DNA of 33,439 bases, taken from Kiritimatiellia bacterium. GTDB lineage: Bacteria > Verrucomicrobiota > Kiritimatiellia > RFP12 > UBA1067. Each line of letters opens with the position of its first letter. The stretch's first letter is position 1. Positions 5,694 to 31,200 of this stretch are shown one piece after another. A program made the position numbers and the translations under genes. The stretch lies in the NCBI GenBank assembly GCA_017432385.1, contig JAFRJH010000202.1, positions 1-33,439 on the forward strand, written 5' to 3'. The notes beneath the pieces were generated by a model, which saw only the letters and a list, made by a program, of their open reading frames with translations, searched no databases and was not told where the DNA came from.

Positions 5694-7469
5694 TTACTCG
5701 ACGACGATCTGGTAGAAGCACGTCGGCTCGTTCGGGTCGCGCGCAATCGTGAAGAGCAGTTCGCCCGCGCTCGCCGCAGGGGAGTCCATGGGCACGACCT
5801 GCGCGTCCTTCAGCCCTTCGAGGGTCGTCGACTTCCTGTAGCCGTAGAGTCGGCCGGCGAGGGCGTTGTCGATCGTGATCTTGATTCCGCCGCTTCCGTT
5901 GTCAAACCCGCTGATCGAGGGCTTGTAGCCTTCGGGGAGGGGGCCTGCCGGATCGACGGGGCCGTCGGAAGCACCGAACTCGCCCTGGTAGCAGCCGATG
6001 TCGACCTTGCCGTTGTAGAGGCGCGCATGCCCAGCCAGGTCTGTGGCGTCGTACATCCATTCGAGGACTACGCCGTGCGCGTTCAGCACCGAGCCGTCGT
6101 CAGGGCGGAAGTCGCCGTTCGCATAGTCCGCGAACTTGATGCCCTCGGCGTCGGCGCGGCAGGAGAGGTTGGAGCTGACGCCCGTGGCGTCGACGTTCGC
6201 GACAGCCATCAGGCCGGGATTCTCGGACACGTGCTGGAACACGCAGTTCGCGATCTGGACTCCAGCAGGAAGGCCGCTGTAGTGGAAGGCGATGCCGTAT
6301 CCGCCCTGCGTTATCCTTGCGCCGTCGCACGTCCATTCCGCGTTGCCCCAGAACACGCAGTTCTCAAGCAGCGGGGTCATCGAGTCGGCCTTGCAGAACA
6401 CGCCGCCGGCGTTGTCGACGAAAGTGCAGTTCACATAGGTGTCCGAGCCGAACAGCTGAATGGGAAGCTTGTTGCCGATGAAGAGCGTGTTGCGGCACTC
6501 TGGCGAGGACTGGGGATTGACCCAGGGGCGCGTCGAGATTCCGTTGACGGCATTGATGGCGTCGATGGCATCACCGCCCGCGACGAGGGCGTCGTACTTC
6601 GCCTTCGCCGTCCCATAGCAGTTGGAGACGACGCAGCGGTCGATGACGGAGCAGGCCTCTCCTACGAGCGGGCCCTCGCCGATGCCGGCGAACACGCAGT
6701 CCTCGACAAGGAGATGCGCCCTTCCGCCGGACTGCGACATGCAGATGATGCCGGTGGAAGTAGGCAGCGCCGCCAGTCCCATGTTCGAAAACACGCAGTT
6801 GGAGACGACCGACGAGCTGTGCAGCATCACGACGCTCCAGGCCTGACGCGTACAGGAGTCAAACGTCGAGTTCTCCACCCAGAAACTTCCGCAGACCGCG
6901 CCGCCCTGCGAAACAGTGTTGTCGCCGTGCGAACCGCAGGCCGTGAAGCCGCAGCCCGTGATGATCGGATATGCTGCGCGTTCCTCGATTCCGCCGCTGC
7001 CGACGGACGCGCCGTCGGACGTCGCAAGCGCGCCGGCGCGCTTGCCGTGGCAGTTTACGAACTCGCAGTCGCTGATCTCGAATCCGGACATGCCGCCGTT
7101 GCTCGACGAGACGTATACCGGGGCGTTGTCCGCGACGTCGGAGGCGTTCTGGAACGTCAGCCCCGAGATCTTGACCCCGGCCGCCTTCACGTAGAAGACC
7201 GCCGTGGAACGCGCCGGGCTCGCGGTCGCGCCGCCGTCGAGGATCGTCTGCCCCTTGCCGGCGCCGGCAATCTTGACGCCCTTCTCGACCGTGAGCTTGG
7301 CAGTGACGTCGTACGTCCCGGCGGCGAGGGTGATCGTGTCGCCGTCGCCCGCATCTGCCACCGCGGCGGCAAGGCCCGCAAAGTCGCTGACAGGGAAATC
7401 CGCGGCCATGGCGGCCGTCGAAATGCCCGCGGCAAGCGCGGTCCGAAGAATCAGTCTGCTTGTTTTCAT
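5694..7469 (-). CDS. Secreted right-handed beta-helix protein with choice-of-anchor-Q-like motif and shared CFYQIVVE C-terminal domain
   Basis: Start ATG 7469 (MKTSRLILRTALAAGISTAAMA, RBS AGAGGG). DGDTITLAAGTY...GAGKGQTILDG; repeated xNCxF/xDCxF beta-helix rungs; DLAGHARLYNGKVDIGCYQ; conserved C-terminal domain. Confidence 0.75.
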   Translation of the reverse strand: MKTSRLILRTALAAGISTAAMAADFPVSDFAGLAAAVADAGDGDTITLAAGTYDVTAKLTVEKGVKIAGAGKGQTILDGGATASPARSTAVFYVKAAGVKISGLTFQNASDVADNAPVYVSSSNGGMSGFEISDCEFVNCHGKRAGALATSDGASVGSGGIEERAAYPIITGCGFTACGSHGDNTVSQGGAVCGSFWVENSTFDSCTRQAWSVVMLHSSSVVSNCVFSNMGLAALPTSTGIICMSQSGGRAHLLVEDCVFAGIGEGPLVGEACSVIDRCVVSNCYGTAKAKYDALVAGGDAIDAINAVNGISTRPWVNPQSSPECRNTLFIGNKLPIQLFGSDTYVNCTFVDNAGGVFCKADSMTPLLENCVFWGNAEWTCDGARITQGGYGIAFHYSGLPAGVQIANCVFQHVSENPGLMAVANVDATGVSSNLSCRADAEGIKFADYANGDFRPDDGSVLNAHGVVLEWMYDATDLAGHARLYNGKVDIGCYQGEFGASDGPVDPAGPLPEGYKPSISGFDNGSGGIKITIDNALAGRLYGYRKSTTLEGLKDAQVVPMDSPAASAGELLFTIARDPNEPTCFYQIVVE

Positions 7470-7514
7470 GGCTGTATGCCCTCTGTTTGTTCCCGCGAGT
7501 CCGTTTGCGGTTAA

Positions 7515-7560
7515 ATTATCGCAAATATGCCGTTTTCCCACAATCCCTACAGATGTAGGG
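7515..7560 (-). promoter_or_regulatory. Palindromic operator plus promoter P2 (beta-helix gene and NagX-like gene)
   Basis: CCCTAC-AGAT-GTAGGG at 7545-7560; - strand TTGTGG (7543-7538), 17 nt, GATAAT (7520-7515) preceded by TGn (extended -10). Confidence 0.75.
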
Positions 7561-7590
7561 GTTCTGTGACTGGCACGCGTATGGTAAAAT
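7545..7590 (+). promoter_or_regulatory. Divergent promoter P3 for GH92, sharing the same operator; probably leaderless
   Basis: GTAGGG-G-TTCTGT (7562-7567), 17 nt, TAAAAT (7585-7590) preceded by TGn; ATG at 7597 with no Shine-Dalgarno. Confidence 0.7.
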
Positions 7591-7596
7591 GAAGTC

Positions 7597-9564
7597 ATGA
7601 AAAGATGGTCTGCCATAGGTCTCGCCCTGCTTCTGGCCGTCGGGGCGGAATCATCGCACGGCGAAGACGCCGCGTCGGAGATGGACGTCGCCGACCTCGT
7701 CGACCCAATGATCGGCACAGTCGGCACGGGGCATGTCTTCCCGGGGCCGTGCCGCCCGTTCGGAATGGTCCAGCCCTCGCCGGACACGGGAAACGGCTCC
7801 TGGACCTACTGCTCCGGCTACTGCGGCAACGACAGGGCGATCCGCCGCTTCTCCCAGACGCACCTCAACGGCACCGGGCAGGCCGCGCTCGGAGACGTCG
7901 GCTTTCTGCCTTTCTCTTCCGAGCCGCCAGGCGACCCGCGCGACGCCGCGCTCGCATTCAGCAAGGATCGCGAGCGCGCCTCGCTCGGCAAGTACGATGT
8001 CGCGGCGGAGGACGGGACCCGCGTCGAAATCGCCGCCGGACGACGTCTGGCGCATTACCGCGTCACTTTCGCCGCGGGATGCCCAGGCAAGGTTCTCTTC
8101 GACTTCCCCTACGGGCTCTACCGGCACGAACGCTATCTGCCGCTTCTGACGACGTCGTGCAAGGTCGAGCGCAAGTCCGCCACGACGTTCGAGGGAATCA
8201 ACCATTCCGACATATGGTGTCCGCGCGACATCGCCTATGTCGTCGAGCTCTCGCACGCACCCGCGTCGTGCCGGCGGCTGGACGGGCATGGCGCGGACAA
8301 AGGGCCGCAGTACCTCCTGGAGTTCGCGCCCGGAACAAGGCTGGAGATACTGGTCGCGCTCTCCGCGAGCGCCATCGAGGGCGCACGCCGGAACCTCGCC
8401 GCGGAGCGCGCGGCCGGATTCGACGAAAGGGTCGCCGAGACACGCGCGGAATGGCGCCGCTACCTGGGGAGGATCGACCTCTCCGGACGCGGAGCCGACG
8501 AGCGGAAGGCCCTCGCCACGGCCATGTACCATCTCTGCGTCCAGCCGAACCTGGTGTCCGACGACGGCGAAGCGCCGCGCTACTCTACGTTCTCGCTGTG
8601 GGACACGTTCCGCGACGCGCACCCCCTGTACGAACGGCTCGTCCCGGAGCTTGTCCCCGACTTCGTAAACTCCCTTCTCGCGCACTATCGCCGCTGGGGG
8701 TACCTTCCGCGGTGGGAGCTGTGGGGCCGCGAAACCAACTGCATGATCGGGTCGCACGCCGTGCCAGTGGTGGCGGACGCCATCGAACACGGCTTCGCGG
8801 GAATCGACGTGGACGAGGCGTACTCGGCGGTCAGGGCGACGCTCACGCGCGAGGAGCGGCCGGGCTCGGGGACGATGTCGGCAAGGCGCACCGACTGGTC
8901 CGTCTACGACAAGTACGGCTACTACCCCTGCGACCTCGTTCCGTGGGAAAGCGTCTCGCGGACACTGGAGTGCTGCTACGACGACTTCCGCGCGGCGCGG
9001 CTCGCGCGGCGCCTCGGCAAGGCGGAGGACGCCGACTTCTTCGAACGGCGCAGCTGGAGCTTCACCAACCTATGGGACGCGGCCTCGCTCTGCTTCAGGG
9101 CAAAGGACTCGCGGGGGCGCTGGCACGTACCGTTCGACCCGGCCAACTGCAGCCTGACGCACAACTACACGGAGGGCAGTCCGCTCCAGTATTCATGGTA
9201 CGTCATGCACCGTCCGGCATGGCTCATCAAGGCAATGGGCGGCAAGGAGGCCTTCGAGGACCGGCTCGACGCATACTTCGCGGGGACGCTCTGCCCGGGG
9301 TCGCCGAGAAACTACATCCAGGACGTGACGGGGCTCGTCGGCGACTACGCGCACGGCAACGAGCCAAGCCACCACGTCACGTCGTTCTACCGGCTGATCG
9401 GAAGGCCGGAGAAGGCGGCGGCGCTCGAGAAGCGCATCATCGCGGAATTCTACCGCCCGCGTCCTGACGGCCTGTGCGGCAACGACGACTGCGGACAGAT
9501 GAGCGCCTGGCTCATCCGCACGGCATTCGGATTCAGGACGACCACCTCGTCGCTGAAATACTGA
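7597..9564 (+). CDS. GH92 alpha-mannosidase (appears C-terminally shortened)
   Basis: VDPMIGT, GHVFPGPCRPFGMVQPSPDT, FSQTHLNGTG, YSTFSLWDTFR, ETNCMIGSH, SVSRTLECCYDD, YTEG, YAHGNEPSHH, GLCGNDDCGQMSAW; signal peptide. Confidence 0.92.
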   Translation: MKRWSAIGLALLLAVGAESSHGEDAASEMDVADLVDPMIGTVGTGHVFPGPCRPFGMVQPSPDTGNGSWTYCSGYCGNDRAIRRFSQTHLNGTGQAALGDVGFLPFSSEPPGDPRDAALAFSKDRERASLGKYDVAAEDGTRVEIAAGRRLAHYRVTFAAGCPGKVLFDFPYGLYRHERYLPLLTTSCKVERKSATTFEGINHSDIWCPRDIAYVVELSHAPASCRRLDGHGADKGPQYLLEFAPGTRLEILVALSASAIEGARRNLAAERAAGFDERVAETRAEWRRYLGRIDLSGRGADERKALATAMYHLCVQPNLVSDDGEAPRYSTFSLWDTFRDAHPLYERLVPELVPDFVNSLLAHYRRWGYLPRWELWGRETNCMIGSHAVPVVADAIEHGFAGIDVDEAYSAVRATLTREERPGSGTMSARRTDWSVYDKYGYYPCDLVPWESVSRTLECCYDDFRAARLARRLGKAEDADFFERRSWSFTNLWDAASLCFRAKDSRGRWHVPFDPANCSLTHNYTEGSPLQYSWYVMHRPAWLIKAMGGKEAFEDRLDAYFAGTLCPGSPRNYIQDVTGLVGDYAHGNEPSHHVTSFYRLIGRPEKAAALEKRIIAEFYRPRPDGLCGNDDCGQMSAWLIRTAFGFRTTTSSLKY

Positions 9565-13662: not shown

Positions 13663-16600
13663 TCACTCCACTACGATCCGATAGAAGCAGCTCGTCTCAT
13701 CCACCGCCTTGGGAACCTCAAGCACCAGCGCCCCGTCCGCCGCCGCGAGCTCGTCAAGGTAGACGACCGGAGCATCATCGAGACCGGCGAGCGTCGCCGA
13801 CTTCTTGTAGCCATACCTTCGCCCCGAAGCGGCGTTGCCGATTGTTATCGACACCTTGCCGGCCCCTACAACGATCGGGTGTTCAACCCCTTCTCCGCCG
13901 ATTACCGGCGCCTCGGGTTCGGGCGTCTGGCCGCCCGTTCCGTCGTCCGGGAGCCCCGTCAGCTTCAGCGCGCAGATGCAACTGACGGTCGTGGCGGTCA
14001 CCGTTATGCCGAAGGCGGTCTTCGACGTCGAGGCGCCTCCGTCAGAGACGAGATAAACGGCACGCGACCCGTCGCTCAGCTTCGGACCAAGCGCAATCCC
14101 CTCGTACACGATCAGCTCGTACGGGCCGAACACGCTGCTTGGGCTCGACCCCGTGAACTCCAGAAAGCACTCCCCCTTGCCCACCGCCGAGAACGTCGCG
14201 TTCGTCAGCGCCGGGACGGCAGACACCTCGGTTGCCGCGGCAAATGCGCCCGTCGTAAGGCGGTAGATGCGGCAACGGCCGCACGTCGTCGTGCTGACTT
14301 CGCGTTCAAGGGCGAGGAGCGAACCGTCGGGGAGCGCGCAGAGCCCCGAGAGCCCGCTCTGCGCGGAAGTCGTACCGGCGCAGGAATCGCAGGTGTACGC
14401 CCACTCGCCCGCCGCCGTCCAGGCGTCCTGCGCCGCCGCGCGCACGAAGCGCGTCAGACGAACGACGGTGGCGACGTTCGTGTTGCCGCTCGACGACTCG
14501 CCGTCGCATGTAAGCGCCTGCTCGTTGGCGGTCCACATGGCGAGTCCGTCGGGGGAGATCGTCAACGCCTCGAGCGAAAGGTTGGAGCGGACCTTGTCGC
14601 GCTGGACCGATGGAACCGGCGCCGTGCGGCCAGTCGCGGAACCATCAAGGGCGAACTCGGAGATGGACGGCGGCGTCCATTCGGAGCTCACCCACAATGT
14701 GCCGGAGAGCGGATCACGCGCAAGCCCCTCGGCGTCGCGAAGTCCCCCTGGCGCAACCGCCGCGCCAAGCTCATGGCTCTCGATTGCGCCTGTCGCCGTA
14801 TTGATGCCAAGCGTCAACGGATAGATCTTCGAATCTCCGCCGTTGTCGTCATGGTCCTGCAAAACGTAGAACAAGCCGCCCTCGCCAGAATAAGCGATGC
14901 CGCCGCAGCCGTTTGCCCCGAAGGGATATTCCGCGATCTTCGCGAGAGACAGCATGTTGGTGGTGTCCGGTCCGGGGACGATCGGCTCGACAGGACCAGG
15001 CTCGTCGCCACCTGAACCGCCTCCAGAGCTCTCGCCAAGGTCGCGCACCTGGATGGCGGCGACGTAGCGCGCGGCGCCCGATCCGCCCATCTTGAACGTG
15101 ACGACGTGCGATGCGGCTTCCGCCGTGAACGAACCATAGACCGTCGCGCCGGACGAGCCGTTCCCGTTCTGGATGCTGACGGCTGGGAGATCTCCGATCG
15201 TAATGGATGGGTTGCCGAACGAGTTACGCGCCAGTATCTGCAGGAGATACGCGTGACCCGTCGTCAATCCCGAAAGCGTCAAATGGATTTCGCCCATCCC
15301 GGTGTCCACGCCGAAGTTCCAGGCCGTGCCAAGAAGCGAACTACTACCGGCATTCTCGTCCGCATTATTGAATGTCGGATTGAACGAGATGTTCGCGGAC
15401 GAAAGATCGGCACCTGCCTGAAACGTAACGCCGCCCAGAGTCCGCTCCGTCGAAGCGCCGCGATATGCATAGAGAAGCGTGCCGTCGGTCCTGAGCATCG
15501 TCTCGTCCGACGCAGGCAATGCCGCAACGGTCCAGGGGATCTGCGGCACTGGGCCGGGCTCGTCTCCGCCACCGCCGCCGCTGGTCGCCTGTACGACAGG
15601 ATAGTCGGCGTCGGCGAACGTCTTGTCGCCCGAGAGTGTGAAGACAACCGGGTTGCCGCTCAAGATCTCGTAGCCATCGGCCGCGGCAAAATTAACAGTT
15701 ACCTGCGTATTCGAGACAATCGTGTAGCTGCCCGCAACAGCCGCGACCGCGACGCCGTTCGTCGTCACCGACTGAAGAACAATCCCCGTCTTCGCGGGGA
15801 TTGTCAGCGAACATGTCGGCACAGGATCGGGATCGACGGGACCGGGCTCACCTCCGCCGCCCGATTCTCCGTCGGGGAGCTCGCGGACCTGTATGCCGTT
15901 GAGGGGGATTTTGCCGTCGACGTTGGAGAACGTAACCGTAACTTCCTTCGTGTTCCCCATGGCCGTGAAGGTCCCGGTAATGAGCGCGCCATACTTCCCG
16001 CTCGCCTCGTTCTCGCCATGGATATGCACTGGACTGCATCCGTTCACCGAAACGGTCATCTTGTTGTTCCAGTAGTTGTGCGAGAGGAACTGCACGAGAT
16101 AGTTTTTCCCGCCCGCGAGGCCTGAAAGCGTCAGCTTGAACGTGCGCACGCTCGAGCCGTTGTTGTTCCAGTACCAGCCGTTGCTAAGCATGACTCCAAA
16201 GTCGCCGCCGACTTCTTCGTTCATAAGTTCGCTGGTGAAGCTGTCGATGTTTGGCGCAAAGGCAACCTCCAAGGAACTGCCCTGGAGATTTACGTCACGC
16301 TCGAATTTGATTCCGTTGACCGTTCCGCCGTGGCTGGAATAGGCATAGAGAAGCGTGCCATCGGTACGGAAGGAACTGCCGGATGCATCCATCGGAGCCG
16401 AGGTCCAGACGTCGGAGGCAGCGGACGTGTTGACGTAGAAGACGACGGACTTCGTCTTCGTCCGCCCCTTGTCCGTAGTCATCGTCACCTCGCAGGTGTG
16501 GTTGCCGTCCGCAAGACCTTCAAGCGTGAACGAGCTGTCCGTCGTCTGGTCGGTTAGCGCCGTCACGGCGGAGGATGCGCCGTCGAGCTTGTAGGCGACG

Positions 16601-17529
16601 GAATACTTGGTCGCGGGGACCGAATTGGCGTCCGTGCCCAAGACCACGCCCGCGAGCGAGATCGTCGCGTTCGAACCGCTCGGCGCCGCGGTGAGCTCCG
16701 TGATGCGCGGATACTTCGGACGGTTGTTCGTCGCGCGGTTCTGCGCGAACAGCCAGACGAAGCGGTGGTTCGGCGCGCCCGCCGTGACGTCGTCGGTCCG
16801 GGAATAGCACGTCGTCCAGGCGTCGTGGGTGTTGTTCTCGAGCTTCTCGAAGATCACGTCCGACCCGAGCGCCCTGAGCGCCGTGACGATGCCCTCGGTC
16901 TGCTCGCATGGAATGGTCGGGTCGCCGCGGTTGTGGACGGCCAGGACCGGGACGTGCGCGATGTCGGCCGCGCAGGCGGGATCGCCGCCGCCGCAGCACG
17001 GCATCGCCGCGGCGAAGAAGTCGGGACGGCGGCAGATCGCGTCCCAGGTCCCGTGCCCGCCCATGGAGAGTCCGGTGACGTAGATGCGGTTGGCGTCGAC
17101 ATCCGCCATCGCGGCATAGGAGTCGAGGAGATCGAAAACAGCCACGAGAGCCGAGGACGGCTTGTCCACGAACGTGCAGGTTGTAGAATTCATGGAGAAA
17201 TCCGCCCACTTGACGTCGTTCGGACACTGCGGGACGAGAAGCTTGTAGCCGCTGGGAGCGCCCGCACCGTCGAGATAGCTCTTGATGTTCGTCATCTCGT
17301 TGATCGTGAACGAATTGTCGACGCCGCACTGACCGTATCCGTGAAGGAAGACGACTACCGGAACCTTGCCGCCATTCGGATCGGCCTTCGCCGCGACGCG
17401 GTAGGGAAGCTGCAGCTTGTTGGACGCAATGAACGTCTGTTTGACGAATTCGCCTTCGGCAGCAGCTGCGCCCATGTATCCGAGCGCAACGGAAACCGCC
17501 AGAACGAGACTCTTCTTGACCTTATTCAT
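13663..17529 (-). CDS. Secreted mosaic: alpha/beta-hydrolase esterase, Ig/FN3-like module F, module A, module B, module A, esterase-like-phytase beta-propeller, C-terminal domain
   Basis: Start ATG 17529 (MNKVKKSLVLAV, RBS GGAG). VFLHGYG, RIYVTGLSMGGHGTW (GxSxG), HNRGDPTIP, HDAW (complete triad). Phytase-like DAEGL, NLSLEALT, LLALERE, YEGIALGPKLSDG..LVSDG. Ends CFYRIVVE. Confidence 0.85.
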   Translation of the reverse strand: MNKVKKSLVLAVSVALGYMGAAAAEGEFVKQTFIASNKLQLPYRVAAKADPNGGKVPVVVFLHGYGQCGVDNSFTINEMTNIKSYLDGAGAPSGYKLLVPQCPNDVKWADFSMNSTTCTFVDKPSSALVAVFDLLDSYAAMADVDANRIYVTGLSMGGHGTWDAICRRPDFFAAAMPCCGGGDPACAADIAHVPVLAVHNRGDPTIPCEQTEGIVTALRALGSDVIFEKLENNTHDAWTTCYSRTDDVTAGAPNHRFVWLFAQNRATNNRPKYPRITELTAAPSGSNATISLAGVVLGTDANSVPATKYSVAYKLDGASSAVTALTDQTTDSSFTLEGLADGNHTCEVTMTTDKGRTKTKSVVFYVNTSAASDVWTSAPMDASGSSFRTDGTLLYAYSSHGGTVNGIKFERDVNLQGSSLEVAFAPNIDSFTSELMNEEVGGDFGVMLSNGWYWNNNGSSVRTFKLTLSGLAGGKNYLVQFLSHNYWNNKMTVSVNGCSPVHIHGENEASGKYGALITGTFTAMGNTKEVTVTFSNVDGKIPLNGIQVRELPDGESGGGGEPGPVDPDPVPTCSLTIPAKTGIVLQSVTTNGVAVAAVAGSYTIVSNTQVTVNFAAADGYEILSGNPVVFTLSGDKTFADADYPVVQATSGGGGGDEPGPVPQIPWTVAALPASDETMLRTDGTLLYAYRGASTERTLGGVTFQAGADLSSANISFNPTFNNADENAGSSSLLGTAWNFGVDTGMGEIHLTLSGLTTGHAYLLQILARNSFGNPSITIGDLPAVSIQNGNGSSGATVYGSFTAEAASHVVTFKMGGSGAARYVAAIQVRDLGESSGGGSGGDEPGPVEPIVPGPDTTNMLSLAKIAEYPFGANGCGGIAYSGEGGLFYVLQDHDDNGGDSKIYPLTLGINTATGAIESHELGAAVAPGGLRDAEGLARDPLSGTLWVSSEWTPPSISEFALDGSATGRTAPVPSVQRDKVRSNLSLEALTISPDGLAMWTANEQALTCDGESSSGNTNVATVVRLTRFVRAAAQDAWTAAGEWAYTCDSCAGTTSAQSGLSGLCALPDGSLLALEREVSTTTCGRCRIYRLTTGAFAAATEVSAVPALTNATFSAVGKGECFLEFTGSSPSSVFGPYELIVYEGIALGPKLSDGSRAVYLVSDGGASTSKTAFGITVTATTVSCICALKLTGLPDDGTGGQTPEPEAPVIGGEGVEHPIVVGAGKVSITIGNAASGRRYGYKKSATLAGLDDAPVVYLDELAAADGALVLEVPKAVDETSCFYRIVVE

Positions 17530-17621: not shown

Positions 17622-20600
17622 CTATTCCACCACGATCTGGTAGAAGCAGCTCGGCTCGTTCGCGGCCTTCGGAATCTCGAGCGTCAGGATACCGTCTGCC
17701 GCAGCGGGATTCGCGAAGTACACGACCGTCGCATCCTTGAGGCCGGCGAGCGTCGTCGACTTCCTGTAGCCATAGGTGTGCCCTGACGCGGCGTTGCTGA
17801 TCGTGATCGACACCTTGTCGGATCCGACTACGATCGGACTTGCAACCCCTTCCCCGCCGATCACGGGCGCATCGGGTGCCGCGGCCTCGACAAAGACCGC
17901 CGTCCAGTCGTCCGTCGAATCCGCAAGCGGCGTCTCGTTGTCGAAGCGCGTCGCCTGGAGGGCGTAGCCGCCTTCGTCCGTCCGCGCATCGCACAACCCG
18001 AAGGTCAACTCGCCGAGCTGCACGACGGCACCCGTCTTGTCGATGATCTTGATGGCGATGCTACCGTTCGTGATCTTGGTCCATCCGACGTTCGCATAGT
18101 CTGCCTGGTCGAGGCGGAGGGATCCGTAGGCCGAAAGATCAACGTCGCCGAGGACAATTTTGCACTTGGGCACACTGCCTGCCTTGCCGCAGGAGATTTC
18201 GACGCCTTCGAGATTAACTGCGCTTGCGGAGACGTTCGTGATGACGATGAACTCGCCAAGGTCGCCGCCTCCGTTGAGCGTTGATCCGTAGATCGTGTGG
18301 AAGCGGAGATTCGCCTGGTCGGAATCGCCGATGTCGGGCTCCGTCGTAAGGACCTGCGTCGTGCCGTCGGGCGCGAAGATCTGCAGGACGGCCGTGTCGG
18401 AGAATGTCGCGTTGCCGACGATCACCTGGTCCGTGAGCGCATCCGAGTGTGCGGCTACGTAGGCGCGACGATCCGCTACGACGTAGATCGCGTCCTGTGC
18501 GTCGCAGACGGTGCCGGCGGGAAGCGTCCACTCGACCGCAGTCTTGAGCGTCCATCCGCTCATGTCGACGACCTCGTTGTTCCCGTTGGAAATCACGACC
18601 ACGCCGTCGGCGAGCCCCGAGAGGTCGACCGTGATGTTCGGCGCAAGCGTCTCAATCGGGCTCTGCGCCTCGGGGATGCCGGCGTTGAGGCGCGAGCCGT
18701 AGCCGACCGCCTTCGCCGTGTTCGTCACGGAGTGCGTCACATAGAGGTGCTCGCGGCGCGGAACGACGTAGTTGTTCCAGATGTCGTCGACACCGGCGGA
18801 GATCGTGGCGGGGCGCGACGAAGACGGCCAGACGTCGATGGCCTGCGCGGAGGAGTCGATCGGCCACTTCGCCGAATCGGCTGCGGCGTCAGCCGACATG
18901 AGCGCGACCATCTCGCGCATCTTCGCCATGACGGGCGTGTCCGACTCGGCAGTGCCGGGCTCCTTGAGCTCCTGGTCCATCAGCGTCCTGAGGCGGCGCA
19001 GGAACAGGCGGCGGAACTTCGTGGACTGGAGGACCGACTCGATGCCGTAGTTACTGTAGTCCCTTCCGGCCGCAGCGGCCATCGTGGTCGTCATAGCCGA
19101 GGAGGTGTAGCACTGGATGCGGTGTCCGCCATAGAGCGGATGCGACTTGAACCAGTCGTCCGTCGAAGAGATGCCGTTCTGCCCGAGCCCGGCGTCCCTG
19201 TAGAACTGCCCGAAGGTCTCGTTGAAGTCGTAGCCGAGTGGCATCCAGGTGCCGGTGCCGCGCGCCCCCTCCTTCATCTCCGGGTTATCGTAGTAGACGC
19301 AGATGTTGGCCCACACGTCGTCCATCTCCTGCGTGATGCGCGCGGAGGCGAGGTAGTTGAGCCACGCCGGAAGGTCGAACTTCTGGACGACGAACTTCGT
19401 GAGCGGGGCGTTGTCGAGTCCAGTCGGATCGGTCTCTTCGGAGGAGAGCGCCGCCGCCGTGGATCCGCTGACGTTCTGCACGCCGAGCTCGTAGATGGGC
19501 CCGCGCAGCTCGTTCTGGAGGACGGTGATGTTGGACTCGTCCTCGTCATCCGGCGTCTTCTTCTCGATGTCGCCCGCAAGGGTTCCGGAGCCGCTCTTCA
19601 TCGTGCCGACGTTCTTGTAGCCGTAGCCGTACTTGTCTAGCCCGTACACGTCCTCGATCAGCTCGTCGGTGAAGCGCTCGGTGTTGAACGCGAGCTGGTA
19701 GAACTGCCCGTTGAGGTTGCAGCGCACCGGGAAGTGGAACGGCGCGTTGTTGCCCATCCTGCGCCAGAGCCAGAACGCCATCATCTGGCGCAGCTTGCTC
19801 GGGTCGGCGTACTCGCTCGTGAGCGAGGTCTTGCGGATGCCGTCGATCGTCTCGCCCGTGACGACGTCGGTCATCGTGAGAGGGTGCGCCTTGGCGAACC
19901 TGAGGCCGTGGCTCTTCTTGGTGAAGTTTGCCGATGTGTTTCCGCGCAGGTCGATGCGGACGTAGTCGTAGTAGTTGGACGTGGAGGCGTCGTAGATCGC
20001 GACGCGTGCGCCGTTCGCCAGCGTGTAGTGCTGCTTGTCGTCCTTGTCGTAGTCCATCTGCGCCACGGACTGCGGGTCCGCGAACATGTGCCAGGTCGGG
20101 AGATGCTCGCTCACGAGGTCCGCGCCTGGCTCGATGATCGTGCCGTACCATTCGTAGCCGTCGTCCTTGTTGTTGAAGCTCGGGCTCGTCCATTCCACGC
20201 CCTCTCCGTCAGTGACAAGCACCTTCCACTGCCTCAGGTGCCCCGCCGCGGGGAAGTAGGACGCGGGAATCGTCGCCGTGTAGCGCGCGCCCCAGTTCTT
20301 GTCGCTCGCGTCGAGAGTCGACATGTCGACGGCGTTCGTGACGAGCGTCGCGTCGTCGAGGTCCTTGCGGTAGACGAACTTGATGGACGCGATCGCGTCG
20401 GCCGCGCGCGGCGCGGACGAGCCGTCGGGGTTCATCACGGGGTTGATCGGCAGCACGACGGCGTAGTCGGTCCCAGGAACGGCCGGCGGCACAGGGGCGG
20501 CGAACTCGCTTGCAAGGTCCGTCTTCTTTTTGTCCGCCTTCTCGTAGACCGGGCCCACGTTCGGGCCGATGCGCCTAAGTCCCGTCGTGTCGGAATTCGC

Positions 20601-23600
20601 CGTGCCGCGCGTCGGCGTCGGGCACATCCAGCGGCGCGTGCCCTCCCCTTCCGCCGCGTCGCCGACGATGATGGACCATCCTTCCGGGAGGTCGCTCGGC
20701 ACGACGACCGTGTCGACGACGTTCGAAATCTCGCCGCCCGGCGCGTAGTAGAGCCTCACGAACGGCGACTTCTTCGGGTTCACCTTGTCGCCCCACACGA
20801 GCACGCCCCTGAGGCTGTCCCCCATGACCATGGGCTTGCCGTCGAACGTGCCGTGCTCGAACGCGCTCACCGACCTGTCCTTGCTGTTCGAATAGCGCTC
20901 GGACGTGTAGAACACGGCGTGTCCATGCGGCTTGACGAGGAACCTCGGGAAGTTCCCCGCGCCGGCGGTGTCAGTCTTCTTGCCGCGATTCACGCGGATG
21001 AAGCGGTAGTCCGCGAGGTCGGCCCACTTGTCGGACGTGTTCTCGACCTCGACCCAGCCGGACTCGAGTCCGTTGACATCCATCCCCTCGAGTGCGCCGC
21101 GGTCAAGCGCGTCCGTCGGCTTTGGCATCACCTCGCTGATCCTGAGCATGCAGCTCGTGGCAATGTCCGCAGGGTCGACCTCCGGAGCCTCCTCCGGCAG
21201 CTCACGCACCTGGATGGCGCTCAACACGGTATAGACCGAGGAGACGAGCGAGAAAGTCTCCGTATCGCCGCCGGCAACAAACACGCCGACGAGCGAGCCG
21301 CCGTTCTCCCAGCCTTCGCCGTTCGCCCTCGCCGTGACGTCGCCCGGAGCCGTGAAGCGCGCACCCGCCGCAAACGAATCCTGCATGTTGAGTATCAGCT
21401 GCACGAGATACGTCTTCCCAGTCGAAAGCCCCTTCAGCGTCAGCGTCCGAGCGCCGGTCGAAGACGAAACCCAGCGGTGTCCGATCAGGTTCTGATACGG
21501 ATCAGCTGAATCCGAATTCATGTCGCGGTACATGTCGACGTCAAAGGAGAAGTTGACGTTGTTGTAGACCTCGCTCAGATTCTTATCCCCAAGTCCGGCG
21601 AACGGAACGGCGTTGACCGTGCCGGTACGGCGGGCGTACGCGTAGACGAGCGCGCCCGTTGTGCAGATCGTGTCTCCGCTCGCACTCATCGGCGTCGCCG
21701 TCCAACCGAGGCCCACCGGCGGAACCACGGGGTCATCCCCGCCGCCGCTCGTCGTCTGCACGACGGGATAGTCGGCGTCTGCGAACGTCTTCGCGCCAGA
21801 GACCGTGAAGACGACGGGATTGCCGCTTACAATCTCGTAGCCCGAGGCGGCGGAAAACGTAACCGTGACCTGCGTGTTCGACACGATCGAGTAGCTTCCG
21901 CCGACAGCTGCGACCGCAACGCCGTTCGTCGTCACCGACTGGAGCTGAAGCCCCGTCTTCTCTGGAATCGTCAGCATGCACACAGGCGTCGTCGGGTCGA
22001 CAGGATCGATCGGATCTTCGCCACCGCCGCCGCCACCTTCGCCGAGGTCGCGAACTTGGATTGCGTTAAGCGGCCTCATTCCAGACGACGCTGCGGAATA
22101 CGTGACGGTGAAGCTCGCCGTCGCGTCCGTGGCCGTGAATACGCCAACGATGGATCCGCCGTAGTTGTAGTTCACGCCGTCGTGCGTTCCGTGGATGTGC
22201 ACGGGCGTCGAGCCGTTGACCGAGACGAGCGTGCTGTTGGATGTCCTGTGAGAAACAAGCTGGACGAGATAGGTCCTGCCAGTTGTCAGCCCCTTTAGCG
22301 TAAGGGAGAACGAGAGCTCGCCGGACGCGGCGCCATTGTAACCCCAGTACCAGCCGCCCTCGAGCATGTGCCCGAAGTCGCCAGACACGCCCGCGTTCTG
22401 GAAGTCGCTGTTTACGCTCCCCGTGGGGGTGGGCGAAGCAGAAACCATAGCGGCACTGGTGAAATCAGAGGCCTTCGTGAAGGTCACGCCCCCAACCGTT
22501 CCGCCGCTGAACGAATAGGCATAGAGGAGCGTGCCGTCCGTGCGGATCGTGCTGCCGTCCGAAGCCATCGGCCCAGCGGTCCATCCGGCTTGCGGCGTCG
22601 GCCCTGGCTCCCCGCCACCGCCACCACCTTGGCTTGATGTCGCAATCGCGAAGGAGACGGACTTGGTCGCCGTCTTGTTCTTGTCGGTCGTGATCGTAAC
22701 AGTGCAGGTGTAGCTGCCGTCGGCGAGACCCGCAATCTGGAACGAGGCGGAAGCGCCGCTCTGGTTCGAAAGCGCCGTCACGGCGGAGGCGCCATTGAGC
22801 GAATAGGCAATAGAATAAGAGGACGCCGTAGCGCCCTCGTCATCCGTCCCCATCTCGATGTTGGAAAGCGAAATCGTCGCCGTGTCGTCGCTCGTGGTCG
22901 CCGAGGCCGTCCCGATCGACGGAGCGACGACCGTCGCCCCGCCGCCTTCGCCGCCACCGCCTTCGCCGCCACCGCCTTCACCGCCCGAGCCGCTACCTTC
23001 GCCGAGCTCGCGAAGCTGGATGGCCTTGACGAGGCATTTGCTGCCGGTGGTGGCGAACGTGACGGTCACGGTCTCCTGCGCGCCCGTCGCCTCGAACACG
23101 CGCGTGATGACGGCGCCGCACTTGTAGTCGTTCTGCTTGGTTGCCTCCAGCGGAGAGAGGTCGCCGGCGGAGATCGTGGTCGAGGAATTGTTCCAGTGGT
23201 TGGCGGCGAGAATCTGGACCAGGTACTTCTTCCCGGCCGTGAGCCCCTGGAGGGTGAAGGCAAGGTCCAGCGAGGAGTCGCTCTTCTCCCACACCCAGCC
23301 GCCGTTGAACACCGGGTTGTTCTCCGTCCAGCCCGCGCCGGTGTACGACGAGGGCGAGATCGTCGCCTGGTCCGAGCCCGGGAAGCCCGCGGAGAACGAG
23401 ACGCCGTTGACGGTGTGACCGGTGTAGCCGCGCGCGAAGACCTGCGTGCCGTCGCTGCGGAACGCCGAACCCGTCGCGTCCATCGGCGCGACCTTCCAGC
23501 CGACGGCGTCGGCCTGGGAGTCGACGAGGAACTTGACGCGCTTGACGGCGGATTTTACGATGCCGTCCGACGAAACCCAGACCGCGCAAGTGTGCCAGCC

Positions 23601-25295
23601 ATCGCCAAGGCCATTGAACTGAACCGAAGCCGACGAGCCGGTCTCCGTCGTGGAAAGCGCCACCTCGGCGCTTGCGTCGAGCTTGTAGGAGACCGTGAAG
23701 GACGATGCGGCCGCGCCGCTGGCGTCCGTGCCCTTCGCCACGCCGGAAAGCGCAATCGTCGCGTTCGTGCCGCTCACCTGCGCGGCGGCGGAGCCGATCG
23801 TCGGAAGCGCGACGGACGATGCGCCGGCCGTCGCCATGACGGACGAAATCGCGGGCGCGAGGATCTCCTCGTAGGCCTTGGTGGTCAGGTGGAGGAACTG
23901 GTCGGGATAGTCGCCGTTGCCCTGGAGGTACATCTCGCCCTTGTAGGTCCCGTCGGCGTTCATGAACTGGCTGCGCACGTCGACGAGGATGACGCGCTGT
24001 CCGTCGGCGAAGGTGCGGATGATCTCGTTCGCCGCCTGGTTGTTGGCGTAGTGCGCAGCGCCCTTCGCGCTGTTCTGCGCGTTCGTGTAGCCGTAGGGGA
24101 TGATCGGCATCAGGAGGACCTTCGACTCGGGATGCTTCTCGAGAACGAGGTCGAGCACCGCCCGCACGCCCGCGGCGATGTCAGCGGGATCCTCGCTCGG
24201 GTTCTTCCCGATGGTGTTGTTCGTGCCGATCAGCAGGTTGAAGAACTTCGTCGTGTAGCCGTCGATGCAGCCGCTCTTGAGGCGCCACAGCAGGTTCTCC
24301 ACGAAGTCTCCGGTCCGGCCGAGGTTCAGGACGTTGCCGCCTAGTCCGTTCATGGACGTGGCGCTATTCCCCTCCATCCACTTCTGCGTGAGGGAGTCGC
24401 CGAGGAGGACGATGTCGCAGCTTCTGCCGTTTTCGCCGATGAGCTTCACGTCGTCCTCGAACTTCCGCCAGAAGGCGTCCTGCAGGTCGGCGTTGGTCGC
24501 CGTCGGGAACGTCGTAATGCGGTCGATCTCGGGGCGCGCCGTCGCAACGAGGTCGGCGGGCATCGCGGAGCCGCTCGCCGCGGCGTTTACGTACGGCGAG
24601 ACCGCCTGGGCCCAGACTTCGTAGCCGGACGCGTTCAACGTGGCGCGGTCGGCGTTGAAGAGCGAGGTCTTCAGCGTGTGGTGGTCGGACTCGAGGAAGA
24701 GGTCCGACATGTCGACCCAGCTGCAGCCCTTCTTCTGAGCGTACGCGCGGACGTCGATGTTGAGGCGGTCGTTGCGCGGACGCAGCGGATCGGACTCGTC
24801 GAGCCCGCGGGGAAGCACCGCCTGCACGATGATCTTGGACGTGCCGAAATTCGTCAAGAGATAGTCGATGATCGCGCGGACGGCAAGGTAGGTCTTGCCC
24901 TCGGGCTCCTCTTTTTCGGTGTAGATCGCGGAGTTGTTGCCGCCGACCATGAGGAAGATAGCCTTGGGGCTGCCGAGCTCGCCGTTCTGGATGCGCCAGA
25001 GGACGTTCTCCGTGCAGTCGCCGTTGAAGCCAAGGTTGAACATCGCCTTGTCGCCGGCGAAGTGCGAGGCGAGCGAAGAAGCGCCCGTCGTCTCCCAGCC
25101 CTGCGTCAGCTCGTCGCCGATGAAGACGATGTCCTTCTTGACGGAGCTGTCCGAGAGCGCCGCGACCTTCTCGGCGTGGCGCGCCGTCCACCATGTGTCG
25201 AGGCGCGCGGCGGGCGTATTCGCGCGGAAGGCGGCGAAGGCGTTCAGTACGCCAAAGGCAACCAACAGAAAGAGGCTGTGCTTGATCGTATTCAT
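17622..25295 (-). CDS. 2557-aa secreted mosaic: two SGNH/GDSL domains, modules F-A-F-A-B-A, lamin-tail domain, CotH-kinase-like domain, further LTD-like domains, C-terminal domain
   Basis: Signal peptide and RBS GGAG. SGNH1 FIGDELTQGW/NLGFNGD/GGNN; SGNH2 LLGDSLT/GTNN/DQFLH. LTD LRISEVMP...WVEVENTS...DLADY. CotH RIDLRGNTS..TKKSH, NGQFYQL, WMPLGYDFNETFG. Ends CFYQIVVE. Confidence 0.85.
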   Translation of the reverse strand: MNTIKHSLFLLVAFGVLNAFAAFRANTPAARLDTWWTARHAEKVAALSDSSVKKDIVFIGDELTQGWETTGASSLASHFAGDKAMFNLGFNGDCTENVLWRIQNGELGSPKAIFLMVGGNNSAIYTEKEEPEGKTYLAVRAIIDYLLTNFGTSKIIVQAVLPRGLDESDPLRPRNDRLNIDVRAYAQKKGCSWVDMSDLFLESDHHTLKTSLFNADRATLNASGYEVWAQAVSPYVNAAASGSAMPADLVATARPEIDRITTFPTATNADLQDAFWRKFEDDVKLIGENGRSCDIVLLGDSLTQKWMEGNSATSMNGLGGNVLNLGRTGDFVENLLWRLKSGCIDGYTTKFFNLLIGTNNTIGKNPSEDPADIAAGVRAVLDLVLEKHPESKVLLMPIIPYGYTNAQNSAKGAAHYANNQAANEIIRTFADGQRVILVDVRSQFMNADGTYKGEMYLQGNGDYPDQFLHLTTKAYEEILAPAISSVMATAGASSVALPTIGSAAAQVSGTNATIALSGVAKGTDASGAAASSFTVSYKLDASAEVALSTTETGSSASVQFNGLGDGWHTCAVWVSSDGIVKSAVKRVKFLVDSQADAVGWKVAPMDATGSAFRSDGTQVFARGYTGHTVNGVSFSAGFPGSDQATISPSSYTGAGWTENNPVFNGGWVWEKSDSSLDLAFTLQGLTAGKKYLVQILAANHWNNSSTTISAGDLSPLEATKQNDYKCGAVITRVFEATGAQETVTVTFATTGSKCLVKAIQLRELGEGSGSGGEGGGGEGGGGEGGGATVVAPSIGTASATTSDDTATISLSNIEMGTDDEGATASSYSIAYSLNGASAVTALSNQSGASASFQIAGLADGSYTCTVTITTDKNKTATKSVSFAIATSSQGGGGGGEPGPTPQAGWTAGPMASDGSTIRTDGTLLYAYSFSGGTVGGVTFTKASDFTSAAMVSASPTPTGSVNSDFQNAGVSGDFGHMLEGGWYWGYNGAASGELSFSLTLKGLTTGRTYLVQLVSHRTSNSTLVSVNGSTPVHIHGTHDGVNYNYGGSIVGVFTATDATASFTVTYSAASSGMRPLNAIQVRDLGEGGGGGGEDPIDPVDPTTPVCMLTIPEKTGLQLQSVTTNGVAVAAVGGSYSIVSNTQVTVTFSAASGYEIVSGNPVVFTVSGAKTFADADYPVVQTTSGGGDDPVVPPVGLGWTATPMSASGDTICTTGALVYAYARRTGTVNAVPFAGLGDKNLSEVYNNVNFSFDVDMYRDMNSDSADPYQNLIGHRWVSSSTGARTLTLKGLSTGKTYLVQLILNMQDSFAAGARFTAPGDVTARANGEGWENGGSLVGVFVAGGDTETFSLVSSVYTVLSAIQVRELPEEAPEVDPADIATSCMLRISEVMPKPTDALDRGALEGMDVNGLESGWVEVENTSDKWADLADYRFIRVNRGKKTDTAGAGNFPRFLVKPHGHAVFYTSERYSNSKDRSVSAFEHGTFDGKPMVMGDSLRGVLVWGDKVNPKKSPFVRLYYAPGGEISNVVDTVVVPSDLPEGWSIIVGDAAEGEGTRRWMCPTPTRGTANSDTTGLRRIGPNVGPVYEKADKKKTDLASEFAAPVPPAVPGTDYAVVLPINPVMNPDGSSAPRAADAIASIKFVYRKDLDDATLVTNAVDMSTLDASDKNWGARYTATIPASYFPAAGHLRQWKVLVTDGEGVEWTSPSFNNKDDGYEWYGTIIEPGADLVSEHLPTWHMFADPQSVAQMDYDKDDKQHYTLANGARVAIYDASTSNYYDYVRIDLRGNTSANFTKKSHGLRFAKAHPLTMTDVVTGETIDGIRKTSLTSEYADPSKLRQMMAFWLWRRMGNNAPFHFPVRCNLNGQFYQLAFNTERFTDELIEDVYGLDKYGYGYKNVGTMKSGSGTLAGDIEKKTPDDEDESNITVLQNELRGPIYELGVQNVSGSTAAALSSEETDPTGLDNAPLTKFVVQKFDLPAWLNYLASARITQEMDDVWANICVYYDNPEMKEGARGTGTWMPLGYDFNETFGQFYRDAGLGQNGISSTDDWFKSHPLYGGHRIQCYTSSAMTTTMAAAAGRDYSNYGIESVLQSTKFRRLFLRRLRTLMDQELKEPGTAESDTPVMAKMREMVALMSADAAADSAKWPIDSSAQAIDVWPSSSRPATISAGVDDIWNNYVVPRREHLYVTHSVTNTAKAVGYGSRLNAGIPEAQSPIETLAPNITVDLSGLADGVVVISNGNNEVVDMSGWTLKTAVEWTLPAGTVCDAQDAIYVVADRRAYVAAHSDALTDQVIVGNATFSDTAVLQIFAPDGTTQVLTTEPDIGDSDQANLRFHTIYGSTLNGGGDLGEFIVITNVSASAVNLEGVEISCGKAGSVPKCKIVLGDVDLSAYGSLRLDQADYANVGWTKITNGSIAIKIIDKTGAVVQLGELTFGLCDARTDEGGYALQATRFDNETPLADSTDDWTAVFVEAAAPDAPVIGGEGVASPIVVGSDKVSITISNAASGHTYGYRKSTTLAGLKDATVVYFANPAAADGILTLEIPKAANEPSCFYQIVVE
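22942..22986. repeat. 15-bp tandem repeat x3 encoding a GGEGG linker
   Basis: ccgccttcgccgcca ccgccttcgccgcca ccgccttcaccgccc. Confidence 0.8.
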
Positions 25296-28219: not shown

Positions 28220-28224
28220 ACCCC

Positions 28225-31200
28225 TCACTCCACAACGACCTGGTAGAAGCAGCTCGGCTCGCCCGCCACTTTCGGTATCTCAAGCGTCAGTACGCCGTCG
28301 GCTTCGGCAGGATCGTCGAAATAGACCACCTCGGCGTCCTTGAGGCCGGCAAGCGTCGTCGACTTCCTGTAGCCGTAGGTGTGTCCCGCTGCGGCGTTGC
28401 TGATCGTAATGGCGACCTTGTCGGACAACACCGCAAACGGCACATCAACCCCCTCCCCGCCGATCACCGGCGCATCGGGCTCCACGGGAGCGCCCGCCGG
28501 CAGCTCCCGCACCTGGATGGCGTTGAGCGCACGCCATCCGGCGGGGCCGGAATACTTGACCGCAATGTCCTCCGTCGTGCCCGTCGCATCGAAGACACCG
28601 ACAAGCGAGGCGCCGTACTTGTTGGTGTCGCGCATGGCCATCGGCTCGAGATCACCGGCGCTGATCAGCGCATCGCTCCACTTGTTGTGCGCGAGGACCT
28701 GAACGAGATAGCGCTTTCCGGCCGTCAGCCCCTTGAGCGTGATCGTCAGCGTGCTTGTTGTGTTGGCCCACTTCCACGAGTTCTTCAGCATCGTGCCGAA
28801 GTCTCCGGTCACGCTCTCGCTGCCCGAGCTGCCGTCCGTCTGCGCCAGATCCGGCGAAACCGCCGTGTAGGTCGTATTCAGGTCGGCGTCCGCGGCGAAG
28901 GCAATTCCGTTGACCGTCACCGACTGGACGGCGTAGGCGTAGAGAAGCGTCCCGTCCGTACGGAAAACGGTCCCTTCCGCATCCGCAGCCCCGCCGGTCC
29001 AGCCAGTCTCGACGGAACCGCCGCCGCCACCGCTCGTCGCCTGCACGGTCGGATAGTCGCCGTCGGCGAACGTCTTGTCGCCCGAGAGCGCGAAGACGAC
29101 CGGGTTGCCGCCCGTGATCTCGTAGCCCGAGGCCGCGACAAACGTCACCGTGACCTGCGTGTTCGAAACGATCGAGTAGCTGCCCGCAACCGCCGCCACC
29201 GCGACGCCGTTTGTCGCAACGGAATCAAGGACAAGTCCCGCCTTTCCGGGAATCGTCAGCGTGCAGACGGGCGTCGCCGGATCGACAGGATCGACCGGAT
29301 TCTCGCCACCGCCACCACCCTCGCCGAGATCGCGCACCTGGACGGCGTTGACCGGCCGGTCGCCGTTCGAGCCGGAAAAGAGGATCTCTACATCCTGCGT
29401 CTCGGCCGAAGCAGTGAAGGTGCCAGTCATAAGAGCCCCGTACTTGCCGCTGGCTTCGTCGGAGCCGTAGACATGCTGCGATTCGCAGCCATTGGCGGAG
29501 ACCAGCATGCTGCCGCTCCAGTGCGTGTGCGAGAGGATCTGCACCAGATACCGTTCCCCCGGCGTCAGGTTCTTCAGCGTCAGCGTCACCGCCTTGGTGT
29601 CCGTCGACGAATCCGTCCACGTCCAGCCATTGCCGAGGATGAGTCCGTAGCCACTATCCGAAACTCCCTCGTTCATCAGGCCGCCGTCGAAGCCGGTAGC
29701 CTCCGGCGTGAAGGCGATTTTGTGGGAGGAATCAAGAGGCAGAGCCCGCGTGAACGAGACGCCGTTGACGGTCTGTCCCTGCGCCGCATAGGCGTAGACC
29801 AGCGTGCCCTCCGTGCTGAACTTCGCGCCGGCGGCGTCCATCGGTTCGGACGTCCAGCCGACCGGCGTCGGCGGCGGCTCGCCAATCCTGAAGTTGACGG
29901 ACTTCGCCGCGGACGTCTTGTTCGCGTCGGTCATGATCGTCACCGCGCAGGAATAGACCCCGTCGGCGAGATCGGCGATGTCGAACGTAGCCGTCGAGGC
30001 GGTTTGGCCCTCGAGCGCGGCCACGTCAGGCGCATTGGTCAGCGAGTAGAAAACCGAATAGGAGGTCGCCGAAACGCCTCCGTTGTCGGTTCCCATCTCG
30101 ATGCCCGAAAGCGAGATCGTCGCCGTCGTGCCGTTCGTCGAGACGGAAACCGACCCGATCGACGGCGCGACAACCGGCGCCGGCGGCGTGCCGATCCGGA
30201 AGGAGACGGACTTCGCCGCGGAGGTCTTGTTCTTGTCTGTCGTGATCGTCACCGCGCACGTGTATTCGCCGTCCGCGAGACCGGAGATCGTGAACTGCGC
30301 GGACGCACCGGTCTGGCCCGTAAGCGCGGCTACGGACGCCGCGTTGTTGAGCGAGTAGGAGACGGAATAGGAATTTGCGCTCTCACCGGCATCGTCCGTC
30401 CCCAGCACGATGCCCGAGAGAAAAACCGTCGCCGCCGTTTCGTTCGTCGTGACGGTGACCGAGCCGACCTTGGGCTGGACTACGATCGGCACGCCGCTCT
30501 CGCCGAGGTCGCGCACCTGGATGGCGTTGATGCCGTAGTTTCCGTCGGACGTGATCGTGAACGTCTTGGTGGACTCAGTTGCCGTAAAGGTCCCCGTCAG
30601 CGCGCCGCCGCAGGACCAGCCGTCGCCGTAGACCTTGATGAAATTCGGATCCCAATACGACTCCTTGATCCAAACATGGGCCTTGCTGTCACTGTTGTAG
30701 TTGCGATAGCCGAATATCTGAACGAGGTAGCTACGTCCAGCCGTGAGGTTCTTGAGCGTCACCGCCTTGTCGCCCTGGTTCGCCCACCAGCAGCGGTTCA
30801 GGAGGTCGTAGTAAGCGCCAGAGATGCTGCTCGGAGCCGACGCGCCGGAGGTCTGGTTGTACGGCCAGGAAATGTCGCCCGAGATGTTCGCGTTGTTGTT
30901 CCCGGCAGCCGCGAACGTAACGCCATTGACCGTGCAGGCCGAGGGCGCATACGCATACTTGAGTGTGCCGTCCGTGCGAATGGCGCTTTCGTCGGTCGGC
31001 AGCGGGCTCGCGTACCACGGCTCGGTCATCGTGAAGTCGAGCAGCGTCACGAGCTCCTTGTTGTCCGCCGTCGTGACGGTCACCTTGCAGGTATGGTCGC
31101 CGAGGGCGACATTCGGGATCACGAACGACTTCCTAACGCCCGTCTGGTTGGAAAGCGCACGTGTCTTCGCGCCGCCGTCGAGCTCGTAGTCAATCGCGTA

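Follow-up and report, generated by a model that had tools for sequence, protein, structure and literature searches.

A near-exclusively C-terminal β-sandwich domain in predicted secreted proteins of Kiritimatiellia, a possible surface-retention or docking module

It is an open question how bacteria of the Planctomycetes, Verrucomicrobia and Chlamydiae (PVC) group that have no type IX secretion system (T9SS) bring their large polysaccharide-degrading enzymes onto or past the outer membrane. The question arises here from a 33,439-nucleotide contig (JAFRJH010000202.1, analysed at its full length and hereafter called the window) in the assembly of an uncultured Kiritimatiellia bacterium of the rumen (GCA_017432385.1). 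An earlier note on this DNA, made from the letters alone, had drawn attention to four proteins with Sec signal peptides and different cargo that end in one and the same domain of some 80 residues, and had taken this domain for a lineage-specific export or anchoring tag analogous to those of T9SS. The analysis reported here partly supports that interpretation and shifts its emphasis. We favour, with a probability of roughly 0.42, a reading in which the domain is a non-covalent surface-retention or docking module, in other words a handle at the end of its carriers.

In a six-frame motif scan, exactly four peptides in the window end in C-F-Y-x-x-V-V-E followed by a stop codon, all of them on the minus strand, where the last codons of these endings finish at 5697, 13666, 17625 and 28228. 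When the last 95 residues of the four proteins (the products of genes p1 to p4, Table 1) are aligned, 32 columns are invariant, including those of YGY-K-S-TL-GL and CFY--VVE, and the other copies are 41–48% identical to copy 1. Since even the most divergent pair gives a BLASTP E-value of 6e-23, these endings are homologous and not alike by chance. The cargo in front of them does differ as described, Pfam recognizing Beta_helix in p1, DLH/Abhydrolase and Phytase-like in p2, two GDSL domains with LTD and CotH in p3, and GDSL in p4. At their other end, all four proteins start with what looks like a Sec-type signal peptide (a basic residue followed by a run of hydrophobic residues and by small ones, judged by eye without a predictor). 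A narrow hidden Markov model (HMM) of the four copies matched nothing else in the six-frame open reading frames (ORFs) of the whole assembly (G000; 2.74 Mb in 355 contigs, 83% complete), so that the glycoside hydrolase (GH) genes of the window, which belong to families GH127, GH92, GH27 and GH2 and do encode signal peptides, are without the end-domain, as had been noted by eye for those fully visible.

The same arrangement is found in public proteins. When 1.84 billion representative proteins, read whole and hence with no positional bias, were searched with a profile built from the four copies, only 58 matched at E ≤ 0.001, and a word-based search with a wider alignment among longer proteins added 65 more. 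When the 122 proteins fetched were re-scored with a wider HMM, 119 matched, 115 of them over at least 60 of the 91 profile positions (hereafter near-complete copies). The proteins that dropped out of the census are P0021, P0036 and P0046 (no match to the wider HMM, the earlier ones being multi-stretch partial matches in repeat proteins), P0051 (partial matches to immunoglobulin (Ig)-like repeats) and P0033, P0039 and P0048 (short or broken, with fewer than 60 profile positions covered). The domain is followed by 0–12 residues in 114 of the 115 near-complete copies, and each of the 115 proteins has a single copy, none of them N-terminal or tandem; frequent internal occurrence, which would have spoken against a terminal tag, was not seen. 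The sole internal copy, at residues 400–479 of the 1563-residue public metagenome protein P0057, is followed by an Asp/Gly/Pro-rich stretch with no strand and then by a GDSL-type region. This protein may be a gene fusion or the result of a missed stop. Nothing at all follows the domain in 56 copies, which is how the stop codon had been described from the window, the others carrying 1–12 extra residues. As for the N-terminus, 73 of the 81 long carriers that start with Met pass a crude hydrophobicity test for signal-peptide-like sequences, and the other eight look like fragments.

The conserved cysteine had been suggested as an attachment site. Just before the terminal Phe, 49 of the 115 copies have Cys, 37 have Gly, 13 Val and 8 Ala, and because fewer than half of the copies have it, this cysteine is a subfamily trait and not a feature of the family, for which such an attachment site was rejected. 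The cargo is another matter, since the domain is borne by at least eight unrelated architectures, including non-enzymatic leucine-rich repeat (LRR) and β-helix-repeat proteins. Beyond the window, Pfam confirms NAGLU and LamG with CotH; two further and weaker copies in the same genome are on F5_F8_type_C and AXE1 proteins; and in a related genome of complete quality (G029), which has 13 copies in all, six domain genes stand in tandem within 17 kb (G029:C6:166500-186400) and encode Beta_helix_3-repeat or BspA LRR_5 adhesin-like proteins.

The family is concentrated in Kiritimatiellia, and in this sense it is lineage-specific as supposed. Close copies on public contigs that carry a name come from rumen metagenome-assembled genomes labelled Kiritimatiellae, Lentisphaerae or Verrucomicrobia. 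The narrow profile finds a copy in 13 of 41 related genomes and the wide profile in 37 of 301 sampled genomes of the phylum, namely in 7 of the 12 from the same family, 9 more from the same order and 12 more from the same class, with only eight weak matches elsewhere. Positive genomes have 1–13 copies, as counted among the best 16 candidates per genome.

What kind of domain is this? It is uncatalogued in Pfam and NCBIfam, and among the papers that literature searches listed, none describes it in its title or the opening of its abstract. Three of the four C-terminal ends have no Pfam match at E ≤ 10 and the fourth has a sub-threshold one to a Big-like family (E 0.037; 14.7 bits, where the cut-off is 27), these ends have no NCBIfam match at E ≤ 1, and among the 29 members of the wider alignment (A2) Pfam yields only single sub-threshold matches, each in one member (E 0.018–0.27). 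The Pfam model for fibronectin type III (FN3) domains, fn3 (PF00041), does not match the 29 A2 copies at E ≤ 1 or the four window copies at E ≤ 10. AlphaFold2, run on A2, predicts with confidence an all-β sandwich (mean predicted local distance difference test (pLDDT) 95.9, predicted template modelling score 0.81), with strands at residues 26–28, 32–40, 46–51, 73–80 and 89–94. The segment P-x-A-P-V-I-G-G, which the earlier note had read as a Pro-rich linker in front of the domain, is modelled inside it at pLDDT 96 as the start of strand A, and the P-x-A-P at the start of the domain corresponds to the usual beginning of an FN3 domain.

Structural comparisons point to a fold class. Foldseek found nothing in the PDB at E ≤ 0.001, the best match being an Ig domain of PECAM-1 (E 0.045), while structural alignment searches (VIA wide and VIA second look) returned an Ig domain of SiiE at Z 6.7–6.9 and dozens of FN3 domains at Z 5–6.4, whose chains match model residues 10–95 and none of which reached Z 8. 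Because scores in this range are common, the likeness to FN3 and Ig domains is one of fold and does not designate a relative. In the ESM Atlas, the neighbours are Verrucomicrobiota clusters only (scores 0.91–0.93). Likeness to carbohydrate-binding modules (CBM) is weak, with CBM21 and Big_2-CBM56 chains at E 0.26–0.31 in Foldseek and Cbm74 at E 0.22 for one A2 member, no CBM is among the structural matches listed by the two alignment searches, and no T9SS C-terminal domain is among those listed by either of them or by Foldseek.

These alignments also suggest where the fold ends. Single-domain FN3 targets of 90–97 residues (7jgu_A and the four Tencon entries 4lpu_A, 4lpw_A, 4lpv_B and 4lpy_A) align only from their residue 1 or 2 to their residue 74 or 75, with model residues 10 or 11 to 95. 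In FN3 scaffolds, strand F ends near residue 75, and what remains of the chain is the FG loop and strand G. Since the last model residue (95) pairs with FN3 residue 74–75, the domain seems to stop after strand F, and in the model it looks like an FN3-like sandwich that has no strand G. A profile search of the PDB returned only non-significant fibronectin rows (E 0.37–1.3); the register taken from these rows, which places I-T-I-x-N-x-x-x-G-x-x-Y on the E–F motif, conflicts with the structural alignments and was given up in favour of the structural register.

The domain is not the only recurrent ending in this genome. A tail of the form [G/P]-h-x-h-x-h-R-stop closes 33 of the 6934 stop-terminated ORFs of at least 150 residues, against 1.9 expected from the internal frequency of the motif, and most of the ORFs that bear it are large and look secreted. 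One of them, at G000:C116:33605-35227, is a paralogue of p1 (30% identity over 500 residues, E 4e-48). An alignment of the two runs from just past the signal peptide to a common DIGCY motif. Beyond this motif the paralogue has no more than 12 residues, which end in the short Arg tail, and p1 goes on with a linker and the FN3-like domain. As homologous β-helix cargo carries either one or the other, the C-terminal endings, judged from these sequences, behave as exchangeable appendages in this genome. When the domain (A2) was paired in a complex prediction with the final 55 residues of this paralogue, the score was 0.00 twice; with no controls and an uncertain partner fold, it counts neither for nor against binding.

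Several features of the domain lead us to favour a retention or docking module. Its terminal position, single copy and varied cargo fit address or anchor modules and not passive FN3 spacers; it is carried by large polymer-attacking or adhesin-like proteins and not by exported exo-glycosidases; and it swaps with another terminal tail and has an apparently open strand edge. Several points weigh against this. Copies are few for a general sorting signal (four strong and one or two weaker ones in the 83%-complete genome itself, 13 in the richest relative), so that the idea of a proteome-wide signal is not supported, and 264 of the 301 phylum genomes sampled have no match. From their sequences, p2, p3 and p4 are partly paralogous scaffolds, i.e. 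three of the four carriers are not independent and part of the shared ending is due to common descent, because they have in common a module of about 180 residues whose family is unassigned; p4 and p3 contain it three times each and p2 twice, and a separate minus-strand gene at 32232-32870 encodes it by itself. The range of Z 5–7 is one that the search tool itself calls common, and the missing G strand was deduced from alignment ranges rather than from inspected coordinates. The residues conserved throughout the family (N39, G43, Y46, L54 and F89) seem to lie in the core or in turns of the sandwich rather than to form a binding patch. The surface location is an inference, and searches of the genome itself identified no partner or export machinery for the domain. 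Lastly, carbohydrate-active enzymes commonly contain FN3 and Ig modules as passive spacers. One alternative is that the domain is an ordinary structural or substrate-binding FN3-like module (a spacer, a stabilizer or a weak glycan binder) that is terminal by descent and by domain shuffling within a few modular enzyme families and has no addressing role, which agrees with the generic fold and its lack of a specific structural neighbour, with the core-like conserved positions, with the low copy number and the tandem paralogy of many carriers, and with the abundance of internal FN3/Ig-like modules in the same proteins. Passive FN3/Ig modules are usually internal and tandem, however, and a domain that is terminal in all near-complete copies but one, is never repeated within a protein, sits on so many unrelated architectures, some of them non-enzymatic, and has its place taken by another C-terminal tail on a β-helix paralogue seems difficult to explain in this way; no CBM match is significant either. 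We hold a passive module to be somewhat doubtful.

The domain could also be an export signal proper, a folded sandwich that is recognized by an outer-membrane translocon and may then be cleaved or attached, as in T9SS but in a lineage that apparently lacks T9SS. Its size, all-β fold, extreme C-terminal position, single copy and combination with a signal peptide and diverse cargo are those of T9SS C-terminal domains, and the five secretins encoded in the genome (PF00263; C40, C253, C234, C139 and C341) could serve further substrates. Nevertheless, to our knowledge type II secretion does not use a C-terminal domain as a signal, no conserved cleavage motif was seen, the cysteine is variable, the carriers are few per genome, and the 83%-complete genome has no match to PF18962, the model of the T9SS tail, or to SprA_N (PF14349), the last point being weak evidence given that 14 control genomes were equally silent. 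The authors of a preprint on Akkermansia do suggest that ‘a comparable system’ may exist there (bioRxiv 10.1101/2025.09.11.675649). On balance, we consider an export signal in this sense unlikely. Still less probable is that the domain is a donor-strand acceptor, in which the G strand would be supplied in trans, chaining carriers to each other or to proteins with a free terminal strand, the candidate donor being the Gly-h-x-h-x-h-Arg tail of about 30 secreted proteins. That the module ends where FN3 strand F ends, that so many more long ORFs than expected finish in a short strand of alternating hydrophobic residues capped by Arg, and that homologous β-helix cargo bears one ending or the other would all suit such pairing. 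The P-x-A-P-V-I-G-G segment, however, which the model places against the domain with high confidence, may close off the open edge in cis, and the two endings could equally be alternatives instead of partners. We would regard it as improbable.

How might a retention or docking module operate? The carriers would first be exported by the Sec pathway by virtue of their N-terminal signal peptide, would then cross the outer membrane by some system, the genome having five secretin genes, and would finally dock through the open-edged FN3 module onto a component of the envelope. The missing G strand would leave an open sheet edge beside the carboxyl end, which is a plausible docking surface. In Kiritimatiellia, the module would address large exported enzymes and adhesin-like proteins to the cell exterior and keep them there non-covalently, and the exo-glycosidases of the locus, which have a signal peptide but not the module, would stay in the periplasm. 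A more ambitious version of this proposal, which is possible but which we would not bet on, is that rumen and gut Kiritimatiellia have an undescribed surface-display system for large enzymes and adhesins that reads exchangeable C-terminal endings, the FN3 domain without G strand being one and the Gly-h-x-h-x-h-Arg tail on about 30 secreted proteins the other. The open edge of the truncated FN3 domain would then dock by β-strand augmentation with an outer-membrane or surface component, and the system would be a PVC counterpart of T9SS sorting made of different parts.

Among known systems, the domain looks as if it belongs with the C-terminal β-sandwich address or anchor modules, as an uncatalogued subfamily. 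With the type A C-terminal domains of T9SS (Por_Secre_tail, PF18962/TIGR04183) it has in common a length of about 80 residues, an all-β structure, a place at the extreme C-terminus, Sec-exported and diverse cargo, and a single copy per protein. There is however no sequence match, either of the four full proteins and their four 95-residue ends (Pfam searched to E ≤ 10, NCBIfam to E ≤ 1) or of the 29 A2 members, the predicted sandwich is one strand short, and the carriers are a handful per genome instead of dozens and occur in Kiritimatiellia, not in Bacteroidota. Because the fold is a generic FN3/Ig sandwich, this likeness is one of position and size only. FN3 domains (PF00041; 7jgu, 4lpu, 3mpc and 1cfb) are alike in the fold and order of strands A–F (Z 5.2–6.3, root mean square deviation 2.7–3.1 Å over 69–76 residues) and in their Pro-x-x-Pro start, whereas the domain described here has neither a match to the Pfam fn3 model nor a counterpart of the G strand, and is nearly always terminal and single. 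None of the models for PEP-CTERM/exosortase, LPXTG/sortase or SLH matched the four proteins in Pfam or NCBIfam, in line with the earlier note, and all four end in an eight-residue strand whose last residue is acidic. The genome does have two small PEP-CTERM ORFs, on C351 and C22. In pilin subunits of the chaperone–usher pathway, an Ig-like sandwich is without its C-terminal G strand, has a groove beside strand F and is completed by a donor strand. The apparent absence of a G strand from an Ig-like sandwich is the point of resemblance, but the incomplete module is here an appendage of large enzymes and not a whole subunit, and no chaperone, usher or donor was identified. Cellulosomal dockerins, which tie enzymes to a cell-bound scaffold, are likewise small and mostly C-terminal modules found on many carbohydrate-active enzymes; they consist of calcium-binding EF-hand-like repeats, in contrast to the β-sandwich found here, for which no cohesin-like partner is known and whose host is a diderm.

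A functional precedent may come from Akkermansia muciniphila, which belongs to the Verrucomicrobiota in the wide sense. According to the preprint mentioned above, its sulfatase Amuc0953 has a type-I signal peptide and a C-terminal β-sandwich domain, shows its activity with whole cells rather than in the medium, and is anchored ‘by an unknown mechanism’ (bioRxiv 10.1101/2025.09.11.675649). In an AlphaFold 3 model presented there, the C-terminal domain resembles that of T9SS cargo (bioRxiv 10.1101/2025.09.11.675649). The likeness to the proteins described here lies in the lineage, the signal peptide and the terminal sandwich; the cargo there is a sulfatase.

The positions of the four genes, of their signal-peptide-like N-termini and of the domain copies are given in Table 1.

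Table 1. The four carrier genes of the window, with their N-terminal signal-peptide-like segments and C-terminal domain copies
Feature	Position	Strand	Basis
Gene p1, 591 aa, predicted secreted pectate-lyase-like β-helix with C-terminal domain	5694..7469 (from Met start)	-	ORF; Pfam Beta_helix E 1.8e-11
C-terminal domain copy 1, 87 aa, ending ...TCFYQIVVE; stop codon 5694-5696	5697..5957	-	Motif scan; HMM match to ORF residues 617-703, 0 residues after
p1 signal-peptide-like N-terminus, about 23 codons	7401..7469	-	By eye
Gene p2, 1288 aa, alpha/beta-hydrolase esterase, two ~180-aa modules, Phytase-like, C-terminal domain	13663..17529	-	Pfam DLH, Abhydrolase_2, Phytase-like E 6.9e-40
C-terminal domain copy 2, 87 aa, ending ...SCFYRIVVE	13666..13926	-	Motif scan, HMM
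p2 signal-peptide-like N-terminus, about 24 codons	17458..17529	-	By eye
Gene p3, 2557 aa, two SGNH/GDSL, three ~180-aa modules, LTD, CotH, C-terminal domain	17622..25295	-	Pfam
C-terminal domain copy 3, 87 aa, ending ...SCFYQIVVE; copy used for modelling	17625..17885	-	Motif scan, HMM; model spans 17625-17909
p3 signal-peptide-like N-terminus, about 22 codons	25230..25295	-	By eye
Gene p4, 1314 aa, SGNH/GDSL esterase, Ig-like modules, three ~180-aa modules, C-terminal domain	28225..32169	-	Pfam
C-terminal domain copy 4, 86 aa, ending ...SCFYQVVVE	28228..28485	-	Motif scan, HMM
p4 signal-peptide-like N-terminus, about 26 codons	32092..32169	-	By eye

As to the organization of these genes, each carrier had been thought to come first in its transcription unit. 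The gene arrangement agrees with this for p1 only, which is divergent from the GH92 gene; the other three carriers lie 62, 95 and 92 bp after a gene on the same strand. A scan of positions 5000–18000 for promoter and terminator consensus gave no usable signal for transcription units. Both p4 and p2 run with their stop codon 4 nt into the gene that follows, which in each case starts with GTG: p4 into the GH2 gene (25391-28228; overlap 28225-28228) and p2 into a gene for 635 aa with no Pfam match (11759-13666; overlap 13663-13666). These overlaps suggest translational coupling. The product of this 635-residue ORF has a signal-peptide-like start. It is one of two large minus-strand ORFs with no Pfam match at E ≤ 0.01, the other being 1681-4443 (920 aa), in a locus that is otherwise rich in glycoside hydrolases and esterases. 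The ~180-residue module likewise has no Pfam family, with partial fn3-like matches on its L-x-x-L-x-x-G-x-x-Y-L-V-Q segment only, and the stand-alone gene for it would encode a secreted protein of 212 residues.

Kiritimatiellia are abundant degraders of fibre and mucin in the rumen and gut. Were the domain to be no more than a passive FN3 cap, the gain would be a model that is missing from Pfam and NCBIfam. If it is indeed a surface-retention or docking module, it could provide a sequence marker by which surface or extracellular enzymes of Kiritimatiellia can be told from periplasmic ones, and could serve as a handle for finding the missing machinery.

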